A stretch of 44,442 nt of DNA from Candidatus Asgardarchaeum abyssi (GTDB lineage: Archaea > Asgardarchaeota > Asgardarchaeia > Asgardarchaeales > Asgardarchaeaceae): assembly GCA_040225955.1 (NCBI GenBank), contig JBECUL010000015.1, positions 1 through 44,442 on the forward strand, written 5' to 3'. A program made the translations under genes and the position numbers. This document shows positions 19,669-26,719 of this stretch, piece by piece; the stretch's first letter is position 1; the number at the start of each line of letters is the position of its first letter. The notes under the pieces are model-generated. The model saw only the letters and a list, made by a program, of their open reading frames with translations, was not told the origin of the DNA and made no database searches.

Positions 19669-20883
19669 TTAGGATACAAGTTCATCAAATGTATAAATTT
19701 TTATATCTATAGGTTGCTTTGTAAAATTACCTTTTCTAGCTGCAATTATATAACTTATTTTTTTACCAAAGGCTATATCGAGTAATCTTTGAGTAATTAC
19801 ACCATCGAAAACCAACGCGTATCCTTCATCAATGGACTTTAAAGTTTCTAATATAGAATTAGTTGCTGTTTTTTTAATCTCTTTAAAGTTTTTATCCAAA
19901 ATTACACCTTCATTCGTTCCACGAACTGCCTGAGCATAGTCAAGTAGTTCTTCTGGAATCAATTCTAGGTTATTAGCTTTACTTATAGTAATAGTTGAAC
20001 CTATTTTTTGCAGCTCACCTCGTTCCATATGTAATTCTTCTGATGGAGTTATTGCCTTAAGTGAGCCTAACTGCTCGATTGGAATTTTATTCTGAAGAGC
20101 TTTAACTATTTCTTTATGCGTTAGTTCTTCAACCTCTTTCCCTGGAGGCGCCCTAGCTACATAATCTATATCAGCAACTTGTAATAACTCACGAAGAATC
20201 AATTCACCACCACGATCTCCATCAACAAATGCGATGGTTGTTTTGTTTCTACTCAACTCTATGATTGTTTTTGGTATGCTTGTTCCCTCCACTGCAATAA
20301 CGTTTGTAAAGCCATGTTTTAGCATATTTAGTACGTCAGCTCTTCCTTCTACTATTATTATAGTATCTGATTTATCAATATTTGGTCCAGCAGGCAAGCC
20401 CTCTTCGCCGTATTTGGTAATTTGCGTTGTTTGAAATGCTTTTAACACAGCTTCAGTAATTTCTTGTGATTCAGGAATCATCTCAGTTGTCCATTGTTTT
20501 AATATCTCTACTGCACGGTGTATCACCTTTTTTCGCTTAGCCTCACGCATGTCCTCAATTTTCTCTATAGTAACTCTAGCACTACATGGCCCAACACGAT
20601 CAACAGTTTCAAGAACCGCGGCCAAAATTGCAGTTTCAACGATTCCTAAACTTGATGGTATAACGATTATTCCTGTAGAACGCCCACTCTTAGAGGTTAC
20701 TTGAACGTGTATCCTTCCGATTCTTCCAGTTTTTTGGAGCTCACGTAAATCCAGTTCTCTGCCTAGTAACCCTTCAGTTTGTCCAAATATAGCTCCTACA
20801 ACATCTGGTTTATCAACAACACCATCAACTTCTATTCTTGCACGAATTAAATATTTAGTAGTTGAGTTATCACGAGTAACCAT
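19669..20883 (-). CDS. dnaG: Archaeal DnaG (exosome-associated primase-like protein)
   Basis: DVVGAIFGQTEGLLG, LRELQKTGRIGRI, toprim VEGRADV and DGDRGG. GAGGTG SD precedes the ATG at 20883. Confidence 0.97.
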   Translation of the reverse strand: MVTRDNSTTKYLIRARIEVDGVVDKPDVVGAIFGQTEGLLGRELDLRELQKTGRIGRIHVQVTSKSGRSTGIIVIPSSLGIVETAILAAVLETVDRVGPCSARVTIEKIEDMREAKRKKVIHRAVEILKQWTTEMIPESQEITEAVLKAFQTTQITKYGEEGLPAGPNIDKSDTIIIVEGRADVLNMLKHGFTNVIAVEGTSIPKTIIELSRNKTTIAFVDGDRGGELILRELLQVADIDYVARAPPGKEVEELTHKEIVKALQNKIPIEQLGSLKAITPSEELHMERGELQKIGSTITISKANNLELIPEELLDYAQAVRGTNEGVILDKNFKEIKKTATNSILETLKSIDEGYALVFDGVITQRLLDIAFGKKISYIIAARKGNFTKQPIDIKIYTFDELVS

Positions 20884-20936
20884 GAGTAAACACCTCATTA
20901 ATTTTATTTTTAAGATCATTGACCATTACTTTTAGA

Positions 20937-21320
20937 TTAATAACAAAACACTTTCTTGAACCCTTCTATCGTAACAGATTGTTTTTTCATAAGTCTTATT
21001 ATACGTTTTCTTAATGATGATTGAAGGCTTACATTTCTTTGAGAGAGAAGCGAAGCTAATTTTTTTGCTATCCTCTTTCCCTCATCATCAAAATCTGTTA
21101 AGATTAAAAATTTTTTGGATTTTTTAGATACATACTCAATAAATTCAACTAATGAACATTTATTATTTCTCACGATTTCTTTAACGGGATATATATTTGT
21201 ATTTATGCCAATTTCTCTCAAAGCTAAAACATCATTTCTCCCTTCAACAATTATTGATATATTTTCTTGATTTATCATCAAAACTAAATTTCTTATTTCA
21301 TCAACTTTATCAATTTTCAT
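20937..21320 (-). CDS. Small Toprim-domain protein (RNase M5-like)
   Basis: IIVEGRNDVLAL...ILTDFDDEG. The real start is probably MKIDK at 21320, because the longer start falls inside the ncRNA. Confidence 0.88.
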   Translation of the reverse strand: MKIDKVDEIRNLVLMINQENISIIVEGRNDVLALREIGINTNIYPVKEIVRNNKCSLVEFIEYVSKKSKKFLILTDFDDEGKRIAKKLASLLSQRNVSLQSSLRKRIIRLMKKQSVTIEGFKKVFCY

Positions 21321-21339
21321 GCCAGTTCGCCTTTTTGAA

Positions 21340-21626
21340 TAGATGGGCGGGGTGTCGCCACGTACTAACACACCACTTCATTGGTTGGCATCGCCGTCCT
21401 CTGTGGGCTCTTAAATACGTGGCTATATACCCCCGCCCAGATATACTCGGCCTGTCCCGCATTTGGGTTGGCCCCTCATTCATCTCACGGACTAAGTCCG
21501 TTGAATCATGAAGAAGCCCGTCAATGCGGATTTCGGCCGAGTTGCTCCGATGGACCCTCTAGGTTGCCCCGGTTCTCATGATTTTCGAACCGGTCCTCGA
21601 CTAGAGGAATGCTCATCATCGCATCT
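21340..21626 (-). ncRNA. Three-hairpin box H/ACA guide RNA (predicted)
   Basis: GC-rich island with three stem-pocket-stem hairpins. Hairpin 1 has a K-loop (C-GA-AAAUC-AUGA-G) and hairpin 3 a K-turn (CCAC-A-GA...AAU-GA-A-GUGG). CCA, ACA and ACA boxes lie 14-15 nt from the pockets. An upstream TATA box is present. Confidence 0.8.
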
Positions 21627-21650
21627 ATATATAGTATTATTAAAGTGTAG

Positions 21651-21666
21651 TTAAAAATTTTGTTTT
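21651..21666 (-). promoter_or_regulatory. BRE/TATA promoter of the H/ACA RNA (and possibly toprim-dnaG)
   Basis: Minus strand reads AAAACAAAA then TTTTTAA, about 25 nt upstream of the RNA 5' end. Confidence 0.5.
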
Positions 21667-21716
21667 AGTGAACTTATTAATGATATAACTAATTAATAAA
21701 TGAAATCATTGTTTAT

Positions 21717-21989
21717 TCAGAGGAAAAGCAAATTATACAGAATTATCCAAAATAACAGAAACGCTATATAATATGTAAAAGATCCAGATATAAACATTTT
21801 TACCTCATTATTATCAAAATCAGATGGAGAAACCTTCAGTAAGAACTTAGCTATATAGTGAGTTATAAAGAGAAAGGCAAGCCCAAATAGTAGACCCATC
21901 CAATCGACAAGATTAAAATATATTGTTATTAAAGCTGCAACAAATGCCATAAATAATTTAAACCAATATAATTTATCTTGTGGTGTCAT
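21717..21989 (-). CDS. EMC6/RAB5IF (OPTI)-like 3-TM membrane protein
   Basis: DKLYWFK...MG...SGSFTYYIAFLLFWIILYN follows the Rab5ip/EMC6 pattern. GGAGGT SD precedes the ATG at 21989. Confidence 0.75.
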   Translation of the reverse strand: MTPQDKLYWFKLFMAFVAALITIYFNLVDWMGLLFGLAFLFITHYIAKFLLKVSPSDFDNNEVKMFISGSFTYYIAFLLFWIILYNLLFL

Positions 21990-21993
21990 AATT

Positions 21994-24108
21994 ATGACCT
22001 CCAAAGGTGGGTACAGTTCAATCAAAAATACATTATCAAATATTGATATATTTGCTATAAAATTTGAGTTAAAAAAGTTATTGATAGATGGGTACATTGA
22101 TAATATATATCATATTGAAAAAGAAACTTTTGTTTTTAAAATAAGAGGAAAAGAGAAAACTTATGAGCTGATATATGAAAATGGTGTAAGATTGCATATA
22201 ACAAATTATGAAATTAAGAAACCTAAAGAACCTACGGCTTTCTGTAAGATGCTTAGAGCTTTTATAAGAAATTCAAAGCTAATAGATATTGAGCAAAAAG
22301 ATTTAGATCGGATTTTGATCTTTCATTTAAGTACAAAAAAAGGTTTAATGAAATTAATTTTTGAACTTTTTAGTTTTGGAAATATGATCCTTGTTGATGA
22401 AAATAATACTATTAGATTAACTTTGAAAAAAAGAAAAATGAAAGATAGGAATATAAGAATTGGAGAAAAATATGAATTCCCTCCAAGTAAAGAATATAAC
22501 ATATTGGACATAAATTTAGAAAATCTGAAACTTTTTCTGGATGATATGCGCAATGAAAGAATAGTTAGGGTGCTCTTAAATTTAAATTTAGGGCCTGAGT
22601 ATATAAATGAGCTTCTATATAGGTGCAAAATGGATGCAAAAGAAAAAGTGGAAGACTTATCTGATACGAAAATCAATTGTTTATTAGAAACCATTATGTG
22701 GCTGAGAAGTGTGTTGCTGAATTGCGATTTTAAACCAATTGTTTATGTTGATGACAATAAGCCTATGCATTTTGCTCCATTGGAATTATTAACTTTTGAC
22801 AAATATGAGAAGAAATATTTTAATACATTCAACGATGCTGTTGATTTTTATTTCTCTAATAGGACGATAGATATTGCGGTTTTTAAAATTAAGGAAGAAA
22901 TTGAAAAAGAAATGCAGAAAATTAGCACTATTATTAATGAGCAAAAAAAACTTTTAGATAAGTATAACGATGAACGAGAAAATTACGAGAGAAAAGGCCA
23001 ACTCATCTATAAATATTATCCGATATTAGAAAAAATGAATGAATCCATTTTAAATGGGATAAGAAAGGGATTTAGTAAAGAAATAGTAAAGCAAAAGGTT
23101 AATGAATTCTTTAACAGGAAAGGAATTCCAATCAAAATTACGAAGTTTGATAAATCACAACCAGTAGTTCGTTTGGTAATAGAAGGAAATGAAATATCAT
23201 TAAATTTTAGGGATAAGATTAGTAAAGCTGCATCACTCTTTTTCGAAAAAGCAAAGAAGATCGAGAAAAAAATTGAAGGTGTAAAGGAAACGATAGAGAA
23301 ATATAATAAAAAACTGGAAGAGTTAGAGAAAGACAGAGTTGAGAGAATCGAAAAAGAGAAATTGGCAAAGGTAACTATAAGGCGGGTGAAAAGCTGGTTT
23401 CATAAGTTTAGATGGTTTTTATCTTCTTCAGGAATTTTAGTAGTAGGAGGAAGAGATGCAAAGACGAATGAAATACTTGTTAAAAAATATATGGGAAAAG
23501 AGGATATTTTCATGCATGCGGATATTCATGGTGCGCCAGTTGTGATTATTAAAAAGGAAAAGGAAAAAGAAATTGATGAAAGTACTATAATTGAGGCTGC
23601 TCAATTTGCTGCATCGTATTCTAAAGCATGGAAAGCAGGACTTGGTTCTGTTGATGTTTTTTGGGTATCATCTTCCCAAGTGAGTTTTACACCACCTTCT
23701 GGTGAATATGTTGCAAAAGGGGCATTTATTATTAAGGGGAATAGAAACTATATAAAGAACGTTCCTCTTGAAATATCAATTGGAATTATACTAGGAAAAA
23801 ATACATTAGAAAATAACAAAAAAGAAGAACATAAGATAAGGGAGATTGAGATCATTTGTGGTCCAACAAATTCAGTGAAAAAAAGAGCTGACATATTTTG
23901 TATATTAATACCAGGAGATTTACCGAAAGGAAAAATTGCAAAAAAGATAAAAGAGTTCTTTGAAACAGAGCTCTATCAAAGAGGAATCATAGCTGCAATA
24001 GACGAGGATGATATAATAAATTTACTACCTCCTGGGTCGTCACGTATTGTTAGTTGTAATGTAGAATTTAAAAAAGATCGAGGTGATGTTGTTGAAAAAA
24101 ATAGCTGA
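21994..24108 (+). CDS. rqcH: Ribosome quality control protein Rqc2/NEMF (NFACT family)
   Basis: PTAFCKMLR, DRIL, ELFSFGNMIL, WFHKFRWF, GGRDAKTNE, HADIHGAP, GAFIIKG. Confidence 0.93.
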   Translation: MTSKGGYSSIKNTLSNIDIFAIKFELKKLLIDGYIDNIYHIEKETFVFKIRGKEKTYELIYENGVRLHITNYEIKKPKEPTAFCKMLRAFIRNSKLIDIEQKDLDRILIFHLSTKKGLMKLIFELFSFGNMILVDENNTIRLTLKKRKMKDRNIRIGEKYEFPPSKEYNILDINLENLKLFLDDMRNERIVRVLLNLNLGPEYINELLYRCKMDAKEKVEDLSDTKINCLLETIMWLRSVLLNCDFKPIVYVDDNKPMHFAPLELLTFDKYEKKYFNTFNDAVDFYFSNRTIDIAVFKIKEEIEKEMQKISTIINEQKKLLDKYNDERENYERKGQLIYKYYPILEKMNESILNGIRKGFSKEIVKQKVNEFFNRKGIPIKITKFDKSQPVVRLVIEGNEISLNFRDKISKAASLFFEKAKKIEKKIEGVKETIEKYNKKLEELEKDRVERIEKEKLAKVTIRRVKSWFHKFRWFLSSSGILVVGGRDAKTNEILVKKYMGKEDIFMHADIHGAPVVIIKKEKEKEIDESTIIEAAQFAASYSKAWKAGLGSVDVFWVSSSQVSFTPPSGEYVAKGAFIIKGNRNYIKNVPLEISIGIILGKNTLENNKKEEHKIREIEIICGPTNSVKKRADIFCILIPGDLPKGKIAKKIKEFFETELYQRGIIAAIDEDDIINLLPPGSSRIVSCNVEFKKDRGDVVEKNS

Positions 24109-25428: not shown

Positions 25429-26517
25429 ATGGTTTTTTCTGAAAAGGAGTCTAAAGATTTATTTTTTGCACATCTTGTAGGAGGTTATCAAGAGTTAGCT
25501 ATTGCAGAAATAAAAAGTTTATTCGAAATGATGAATAGCGAGTTTTCTATCAAAGGTATTATGGATCAAATTTTATTGCTAGAATCCTGTAGGAATGCTA
25601 TATTTAAGATAGCTAGAAGAGCTTGTTTATGTCACGGAATATACGAAAACATAGCGGTTATTGATATAAGTGCAGAAATACTAAATAATTTTTCAGAGTT
25701 ATTTCCTGAGATCATTAAAACTTTAGACTGGAAAGAAGTTATTAAGCAAGCAAAAACATTTTCAGTAAATGTCATTAGAATAAAAAGATATTTAGAATCT
25801 ATTAAAAATATGGATATAGTAAATGCTATTGGAAATTTCATTAAAAATTCGCTAAAGGTAAAAGTAAGTATAGAAAAACCAGATGTTAAAATTGTCGCTT
25901 TTTTAACGGAGAATAAGATTATTCTAGGAAAATTTTTAACCTCATGCGCTCGGAAAGATGTTTTAACGAGGGAACCGTCACATAGACCCGTAATTCACCC
26001 AGCTACCATGAATGCCATTCACTCTCGGATATTAATTAACTTAGCACAAGTAAGGGAGGGGGATATAGTACTAGATCCGTTTTGTGGTGTAGGGGGGATA
26101 ATGATTGAAGGATGTATTGTTGGCGCTTATATGCTTGGCATGGATTTAAATCCTAAAGTTTTAAGGGGTGCTCAAAAGAATTTGTTATATTTTGGGTGTA
26201 ATAACTATACACTAATAAGAGGAAATGCTAAGCACTTTCCAATACCTTTAGAGAGTATAGATGCTATAGTGACGGACCCTCCATATGGTAGAACTAGTAG
26301 TACGTATAAGTATAAATTAGAAGATTTACTAGAAGCCTTTTTAGATAACTCAGCAGACGTTCTTAAAAAAGGGAAAATTATAGCATTTGCTATACCCAGT
26401 ACTGTTACCATGATGAAAAAACTATCTTTACCTAAAAATTTTGAGCTTATTTTTAGTTCTGAGGTATGCATGCATAAGACATTAACAAGAAGATTTATTG
26501 CCCTTAGGAAAAAGTAG
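25429..26517 (+). CDS. trm11: tRNA (guanine(10)-N2)-methyltransferase Trm11/TrmG10 (THUMP + methyltransferase)
   Basis: THUMP-like N-terminal half, then RPVIHPATM, LDPFCGVGG, TDPPYGR, MHKTLTR. Confidence 0.9.
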   Translation: MVFSEKESKDLFFAHLVGGYQELAIAEIKSLFEMMNSEFSIKGIMDQILLLESCRNAIFKIARRACLCHGIYENIAVIDISAEILNNFSELFPEIIKTLDWKEVIKQAKTFSVNVIRIKRYLESIKNMDIVNAIGNFIKNSLKVKVSIEKPDVKIVAFLTENKIILGKFLTSCARKDVLTREPSHRPVIHPATMNAIHSRILINLAQVREGDIVLDPFCGVGGIMIEGCIVGAYMLGMDLNPKVLRGAQKNLLYFGCNNYTLIRGNAKHFPIPLESIDAIVTDPPYGRTSSTYKYKLEDLLEAFLDNSADVLKKGKIIAFAIPSTVTMMKKLSLPKNFELIFSSEVCMHKTLTRRFIALRKK

Positions 26518-26528
26518 TTAAAAAGTGA

Positions 26529-26631
26529 TGCCCCGGCCGGGCTTCGATCCCGGGTCGACGGGGCTTACTCCGGTAGCGCATAGCACTACCGTGAAAGCCC
26601 GTTATGCTTGACCTGGCTACACCACCGGGGC
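26529..26631 (-). tRNA. tRNA-Glu(TTC) with ~28-nt intron (about 26564-26591)
   Basis: Acceptor GCCCCGG/CCGGGGC-A, anticodon stem ACGGG/CCCGT, loop CT-TTC-A, intron hairpin CGGTAG/CTACCG, T stem CCGGG/CCCGG. Confidence 0.85.
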
Positions 26632-26645
26632 GCGTAGAAAATGGA

Positions 26646-26719
26646 TGGGCCCGGTGGGATTCGAACCCACGACCACGAGGTTATGAGCCTCGCGCTCTAA
26701 CCAGCTGAGCTACGGGCCC
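26646..26719 (-). tRNA. tRNA-Ile2(CAT) (agmatidine-type); elongator Met less likely
   Basis: GGGCCCGTAGCTCAG...CGAGG-CTCATAA-CCTCG...GGTTCGAATCCC...CGGGCCCA. The acceptor stem is Ile-type. Confidence 0.9.

Follow-up and report, generated by a model that had tools for sequence, protein, structure and literature searches.

A very probable Asgard orthologue of the three-module Pab40/HgcG box H/ACA guide RNA, encoded beside an archaeal dnaG gene

The closest described systems are archaeal box H/ACA guide RNAs, and the statements cited below on their targets and box requirements are drawn from two studies (PMC2377435 and PMC7075261). In the three-module Pab40 family (Pab40, Pf7, Pho40, Afu4 and HgcG; Rfam RF00064), module 1 of Pab40 makes Ψ2588, and module 2 of Afu4 and Pf7 was argued to aim at the 2678-equivalent, a pseudouridine in H. 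marismortui, Drosophila and mouse (PMC2377435). The third module of these RNAs is directed at the loop of helix 69 (P. abyssi 2016). In Haloferax volcanii, the two-hairpin guide sR-h45 requires an internal ANA for its 5′ module, while the ACA box is dispensable in typical single-hairpin guides, and where the target lies in a run of U's, it is the most 5′ unpaired U that becomes modified (PMC7075261). A third relevant architecture is that of Pab21/Pf1, a single H/ACA hairpin with 16S 891 as its target, which is joined to a C/D-type K-turn motif and, in the case of Pab21, is known both with and without that motif (PMC2377435). In the literature available to us, searches found no dedicated paper on the H/ACA RNAs of Asgard archaea.

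The window analysed here, a stretch of 44,442 nucleotides from Candidatus Asgardarchaeum abyssi, very probably carries on its minus strand, at about 21628–21336, a three-module archaeal box H/ACA sRNA gene that is a diverged Asgard orthologue of Pab40, Pf7, Afu4 and HgcG, with the same three hairpins in the same order (HP1, HP2 and HP3; Table 1). The anatomy, homology and covariation of this locus, the complementarity of its pockets to the rRNA of relatives and the presence of the protein genes in the same genome are established; we infer that the RNA is transcribed, assembles into a ribonucleoprotein and directs the modifications discussed below. The stretch stands out in base composition (54–56% GC versus 34% for the genome) and in folding energy, with a minimum free energy of −130.9 kcal/mol on the minus strand (z −7.5 relative to shuffles) and −116.9 kcal/mol on the plus strand (z −5.75), a difference that fits the G·U pairs of the proposed stems. 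The original prediction, made by a reader who had only the sequence and its open reading frames, had described a three-hairpin guide RNA on this strand, and all of the elements that it listed are present where it placed them; the outer clamp helices of HP2 and HP3 and the C/D-like K-turn beside HP1, described below, go beyond its list. As for the H/ACA architecture that it proposed, lower stem, pocket, upper stem, K-loop or K-turn and the 14–15-nt spacing held up, whereas HP1 has CCA rather than an ANA box and the geometry of HP2 is atypical.

At the Rfam gathering thresholds only a tRNA is reported in the window and the three-hairpin RNA is not, which agrees, as an indirect check, with the earlier view that the gene is unannotated. 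Below those thresholds, the RF00064 (HgcG/Pab40) model matches the minus strand over its full length with 33.6 bits (E 1e-7; gathering score 77), and the RF00060 (HgcE/Pab105) model matches HP3 with 20.6 bits. Of 151 genomes from this phylum (Asgard), 14 carry full-length RF00064-like RNAs, likewise sub-threshold (19–52 bits), and an additional RF00064-like RNA upstream of dnaG at locus L026 reaches 62.9 bits. A BLAST search with the 301-nt RNA stretch against 40 relatives gave no match, and the genome has no close relative among those compared; the family is too diverged for a DNA search. As a diverged member, the three-hairpin RNA belongs to a family already described in Rfam and forms no new class.

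Table 1 Features of the guide RNA locus and its neighbouring genes in the window
Feature	Coordinates	Strand	Basis or remark
Whole RNA gene, about 290 nt	21336..21628	−	GC island, MFE z −7.5, RF00064 match over 21437–21668; ends approximate
Possible TATA box, TTTAATAA	21637..21644	−	Candidate picked by eye and because it aligns with the promoter section of RF00064
5′ strand of box C-like K-turn, UGC-GAU-GA-UGA including AUGAUGA	21613..21623	−	Pairs with 21550–21543; may belong to the transcript
HP1 guide hairpin	21556..21607	−	Strand reading, RF00064 alignment, alignment of relatives
CCA in place of the HP1 ACA box	21551..21553	−	15 nt after the pocket top
3′ strand of K-turn, UCG-GA-GCA, box D-like CGGA	21543..21550	−	Strand reading and relatives
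HP2 with outer clamp	21445..21542	−	Folding and alignment of relatives
HP3 with outer clamp	21345..21438	−	HgcE match (20.6 bits), folding, alignment of relatives
Small Toprim protein, 127 aa, PRK04017-like	20937..21320	−	Starts about 20 nt past the RNA
Archaeal DnaG, 416 aa	19669..20919	−	NF003108, 516.8 bits versus cut-off 300

HP1 corresponds column by column to module 1 of RF00064 in its stems, pocket and K-loop, keeps the spacing of that module and is aimed at the same uridine (P. abyssi 2588). Its lower stem (CCUCUAG, 21607–21601, with CUAGAGG, 21562–21556) opens into a pocket formed by UCGAGGA (21600–21594) and GGCAAC (21568–21563), followed by a 7-bp upper stem (CCGGUUC/GAACCGG) and a K-loop (GAAAAUCAUGA, 21586–21576), as in the RF00064 consensus. 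In a MAFFT alignment of 13 sequences, compensatory changes are found in 12 of the 16 predicted pairs, and the bases CGAGG, UGA and G-GCAA are invariant. The box is where this hairpin departs from the model, which has ACA at the place of the CCA; the distance to the pocket is that of a functional box, the base identity is not.

This substitution bears on whether the gene is intact. If it were partly decayed, HP2 and HP3 would still work while HP1, having lost its ACA box, would no longer guide, a reading that draws on the CCA at 21553–21551, where 11 of the 13 aligned sequences show ACA (another has AAA), and on the internal ANA required in a double stem-loop guide (PMC7075261). However, the pocket bases CGAGG/GCAA, the K-loop and the stems of HP1 are intact and agree with the columns that are invariant across the family, three further metagenome runs (X2, X4 and X19) gave no reported difference at the CCA bases, and typical single-hairpin guides can dispense with the ACA box (PMC7075261). 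The variants of the RNA seen in metagenomes lie in loops or keep the pairing. Decay of HP1 therefore appears unlikely to us and we prefer to regard the gene as intact; in view of the CCA and the contrasting ANA requirements described for archaeal guides (PMC7075261), we take HP1 as a putative guide.

The segments on either side of HP1 (21623–21613 and 21550–21543) could pair into a C/D-type K-turn just below the hairpin. An H/ACA hairpin and a C/D-type K-turn motif are also combined in Pab21/Pf1 (PMC2377435), from which the RNA in the window differs by its three hairpins and its 23S targets. The motif is also present in L013, L016 and L017, in L023 and, less clearly, in L026, with compensatory changes in both short stems; only four lineages carry it. 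Given the perfect box C (AUGAUGA, 21619–21613) and the D-like CGGA, the 5′ part of the gene might be taken for a methylation guide of the box C/D kind joined to H/ACA hairpins, the more so as weak matches to sR39 (E 0.18) and snoPyro_CD (E 4) were obtained and Pab21 exists in forms with and without a C/D motif (PMC2377435). Such a fusion is very improbable: C′ and D′ boxes and a guide spacer are missing, the H/ACA hairpin itself fills the space between the two boxes, and the Rfam C/D matches are at chance level. We treat the motif as a possible basal K-turn of HP1.

HP2 and HP3 show a common plan, each being enclosed in an 8-bp clamp helix that starts directly after its ACA. HP2 has a lower stem of UCCGCAUU (21530–21523) and AAUGCGGG (21463–21456), a pocket of GACGGGC (21522–16) and AACCCA (21469–64), K-turn GA dinucleotides at 21507–06 and 21481–80, an ACA at 21455–21453, 14 nt from the pocket top, and an outer clamp formed by 21542–21535 and 21452–21445. 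Its upper stem is unusual, with 9 bp and a bulged U below the K-turn as against the usual 6 bp; module 2 is the atypical one in Pab40 as well. In HP3, the lower stem (GCCACGUA, 21423–21416, with UACGUGGC, 21364–21357) leads to a pocket of UUUAAGA (21415–09) and GUUAG (21369–65), an upper stem of 6 bp plus A·A plus GA/GA, and a consensus K-turn (CCAC-A-GA...CC-AAU-GA-A-GUGG) with GA at 21401–00 and 21379–78. With GCCCAC/GUGG(U)GU taken as the upper stem of HP3, its ACA (21355–21353) is 14 nt away from the pocket top; the outer clamp of this hairpin pairs 21438–21431 with 21352–21345.

For these two hairpins MAFFT misaligned the stems and yielded a poor consensus, and its alignments were replaced by alignments of relatives to single-sequence covariance models built from the hand-drawn structures, from which the antisense row of the window was removed before counting. 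In HP2 (8 sequences), 95% of cells are paired and double changes occur in 27 of 31 pairs, compared with 30–51% paired when the partners are slid; in HP3 (6 sequences), the corresponding values are 92%, 18 of 27 pairs and 40–48%, and all of these figures come from related sequences in alignments biased towards the model structure. The clamp, lower and upper helices have wholly different sequences between lineages, and the clamps covary fully, while the pocket strands, the GA/UGA bases of the K-turns and the ACA boxes stay constant. The pattern that the original prediction would lead one to expect, with covarying stems and fixed pockets, K-turn GA motifs and ACA boxes, is thus what relatives display. 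A bulge-helix-bulge splicing motif was also considered at the clamps and rejected, as the two loops there face each other and lack a 4-bp offset.

The RNA stretch is overlapped by four mechanical open reading frames of 48–104 aa, which had been dismissed beforehand as spurious. A protein-coding reading of the stretch would depend on one of them, yet none has a Pfam match at E 0.1 and conservation tracks base pairs rather than codons, so that we give this possibility practically no weight against an RNA gene. The ends of the RNA can be placed approximately. The minimum free energy fold contains a possible terminal stem (AUAGAUG, 21628–22, with CAUCUAU, 21345–39), and besides the candidate TATA box in Table 1 there are further AT-rich or TATA-like candidates near 21637–21644, several of which would fit a promoter. 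A metatranscriptome contig from X19 with a depth of 2 spans 21409–21752, overlapping the RNA and extending 125 nt upstream; it may represent DNA rather than transcript, and we take no evidence of expression from it.

The LSU and SSU rRNA of the organism itself were sought in the assembly and not found, and targets were therefore tested on relatives only. About 4.6 kb of LSU and SSU rRNA was scanned, with pocket tops placed 14–15 nt from the box, and scored in two relatives. In both relatives the predicted site of each hairpin outscores every other position in the LSU and SSU rRNA, and all three are conserved 23S sites. The score of the HP1 site, UUGC[U]N-CCUCGA, was reached by 18–19 of 1,000 shuffled pockets, that of the HP2 site, UGGGUU[U]A-GACCGUC, which has one G·A mismatch in the 5′ guide, by 2–4 of 1,000, and that of the HP3 site, UAAC[U]C-UCUUAAG, in which the 3′ guide forms only 4 bp with the target, by 0–2 of 1,000; these counts refer to a scan in which the conserved sites appeared only with the top one or two pocket bases of HP1 unpaired and with the 14-nt rule fixing the pocket borders of HP2 and HP3, in part once the target was known. 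A strict scan, demanding contiguous pairing within the pocket borders of the original prediction, gave no conserved site. The target sequences are conserved in 5–7 of the 8 Asgard LSU rRNAs read, namely in those uninterrupted at the site in question.

Judging by sequence context, we take the E. coli equivalents of the three sites to be U2496 (HP1), U2586 (HP2) and U1921 (HP3), and the HP1 and HP3 sites to be yeast positions 2865 and 2264. Presumably, these two are the positions served by the yeast snoRNAs snR46 (Ψ2865) and snR3 (Ψ2264) and by their human counterparts, which are two-hairpin eukaryotic H/ACA snoRNAs without K-turns and are likened to the RNA in the window by target position alone. 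The HP2 site corresponds to H. marismortui 2621 and P. abyssi 2678. Its distance from the HP1 site is exactly 90 nt, the same as between P. abyssi 2588 and 2678, and from this correspondence we conclude that both modules keep the targets of the family; HP2 is accordingly aimed at the site proposed for module 2 of Afu4 and Pf7 (PMC2377435). The same universally conserved UUU site is the one at which SL1 of sR-h45 makes Ψ2605 (PMC7075261). Within that run U2585 may be the target in place of U2586, and we favour the latter because modification falls on the most 5′ of the unpaired U's (PMC7075261).

Set against the family targets P. abyssi 2588, 2678 and 2016, modules 1 and 2 thus match, while module 3 points to the 1921-equivalent. 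HP3 retains the GUUA 3′ guide of the family, which pairs with UAAC in helix 69 and could do so with either copy of this repeated sequence. Its 5′ guide, UUUAAGA, differs from that of the family and pairs with UCUUAAG, which puts the predicted target at 1921 rather than 1915, six nucleotides further downstream than the loop site of helix 69. Helix 69 is also where SL2 of sR-h45 acts, but there the modified positions are 1940 and 1942 in the loop and not the 1921-equivalent (PMC7075261).

Guides of the same type as HP3 are found at L018 and L021. Two-hairpin relatives of the RNA were observed as well, at L019 (1501–1701) and L024 (1501–1709), and the pocket of their second hairpin, CGAGAGAG/GUGUUAGUU, fits the U1917-equivalent in the helix-69 loop, which suggests that the helix-69 uridine addressed by the HP3-type module varies from one Asgard lineage to another. 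Insertions that are probably introns interrupt rRNA genes of some Asgard relatives (the LSU rRNA of L002 (G001) and L005 (G011) and the SSU rRNA of L011, 2,426 nt) right at the guide-targeted helix 69–71 and peptidyl-transferase regions.

The genome encodes Cbf5 (468 bits), Nop10 (77 bits), Gar1 (30.4 bits) and L7Ae (110 bits), all above the curated cut-offs, so that the full protein set is at hand for the L7Ae- and Cbf5-bound particle envisaged at the outset, the binding itself being assumed by analogy. Following the model of characterised archaeal H/ACA ribonucleoproteins, L7Ae would sit at the apical K-loop or K-turn of each hairpin and Cbf5–Nop10–Gar1 would occupy the lower stem together with the box. 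Both strands of each internal loop would base-pair with 23S rRNA and leave a single uridine unpaired between them, which Cbf5 would then convert to pseudouridine.

Compared with the Pab40 family, the RNA in the window thus deviates in the CCA box of HP1, the C/D-like K-turn beside that hairpin, the long clamps of HP2 and HP3 just past ACA, and the 5′ guide of HP3. It is possible, although on balance doubtful, that these deviations belong together and that the lineage runs a structurally rebuilt Pab40-type guide combining an ANA-less 5′ module, bulged ACAs and a re-aimed module 3. HP1 would then work without an ANA box, held in place by a second L7Ae site, the basal C/D-type K-turn; every ACA would be a 3-nt bulge between a lower stem and a clamp helix; and HP3 would have kept GUUA but exchanged the universal pseudouridine of the helix-69 loop for the position of yeast Ψ2264 as its target. 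If this were true, the way in which H/ACA modules switch targets could be read from Asgard archaea, and box recognition by Cbf5 would be looser than thought. Even so, neither the three-hairpin RNA nor its deviations amount to a new kind of system.

Taken as an intact orthologue of Pab40, the RNA adds a well-supported non-coding gene to an Asgard genome in which threshold-based Rfam annotation finds nothing of the kind, and it extends the three-module Pab40/HgcG guide into Asgard archaea with two of three targets unchanged. Both of these are uridines of the peptidyl-transferase centre that are modified in eukaryotes or haloarchaea too. The CCA for ACA, the basal K-turn of HP1, the clamped ACA boxes and the shifted helix-69 target offer leads on how Cbf5 recognizes its guides and how guides acquire targets.

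The genes downstream of the RNA are, as had been proposed, those of a small Toprim protein and of archaeal DnaG. The best matches of this DnaG are in Hermod-, Odin- and Promethearchaeota MAGs, in line with the Asgard-type genome assumed from the letters of the stretch. The RNA lies beside archaeal dnaG in six loci, namely the window (19669–21628, minus strand), L026 (1284–4197), L012, L014, L022 and L025; the order RNA, Toprim, DnaG is found in the window and in L026, whereas in the other four dnaG is nearby in other orientations. Eight other DnaG loci, including some in Hermod-, Odin- and Promethearchaeota MAGs, have no HgcG-like RNA near dnaG according to Rfam. An oligo-U tract is absent from the spacer ahead of the Toprim start codon, so that the RNA and the Toprim gene may be co-transcribed.

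The same facts, a distance of some 20 nt to the start codon with no oligo-U in between and the recurrence near dnaG in six loci, could indicate a cis-acting structured leader of the toprim–dnaG mRNA instead of a trans-acting guide. On the other hand, homologues are also encoded in different gene neighbourhoods and vary in their orientation towards dnaG, and what is conserved are the rRNA-complementary pockets, the K-turn GA bases and the ACA boxes, with nothing tied to the downstream reading frame; a leader function is accordingly highly improbable, and the trans-acting guide remains our interpretation of the locus.

A few further observations concern the surroundings. The Toprim protein is weakly RNase M5-like in both the window and L026, and the open reading frame just upstream of the RNA (21717–22097, minus strand) matches EMC6 weakly (E 4e-4), falling slightly short of the Pfam cut-off. 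Beside tRNA-Met (26646–26719) lies a second tRNA of 103 nt (26529–26631, minus strand; RF00005, 43 bits), which was reported neither by ARAGORN nor by the whole-window Rfam scan and presumably contains an intron. Close to it on the plus strand, at 26405–26468, is a weak box C/D snoRNA-like match to SNORD36 (26.5 bits versus a cut-off of 30, E 0.049).
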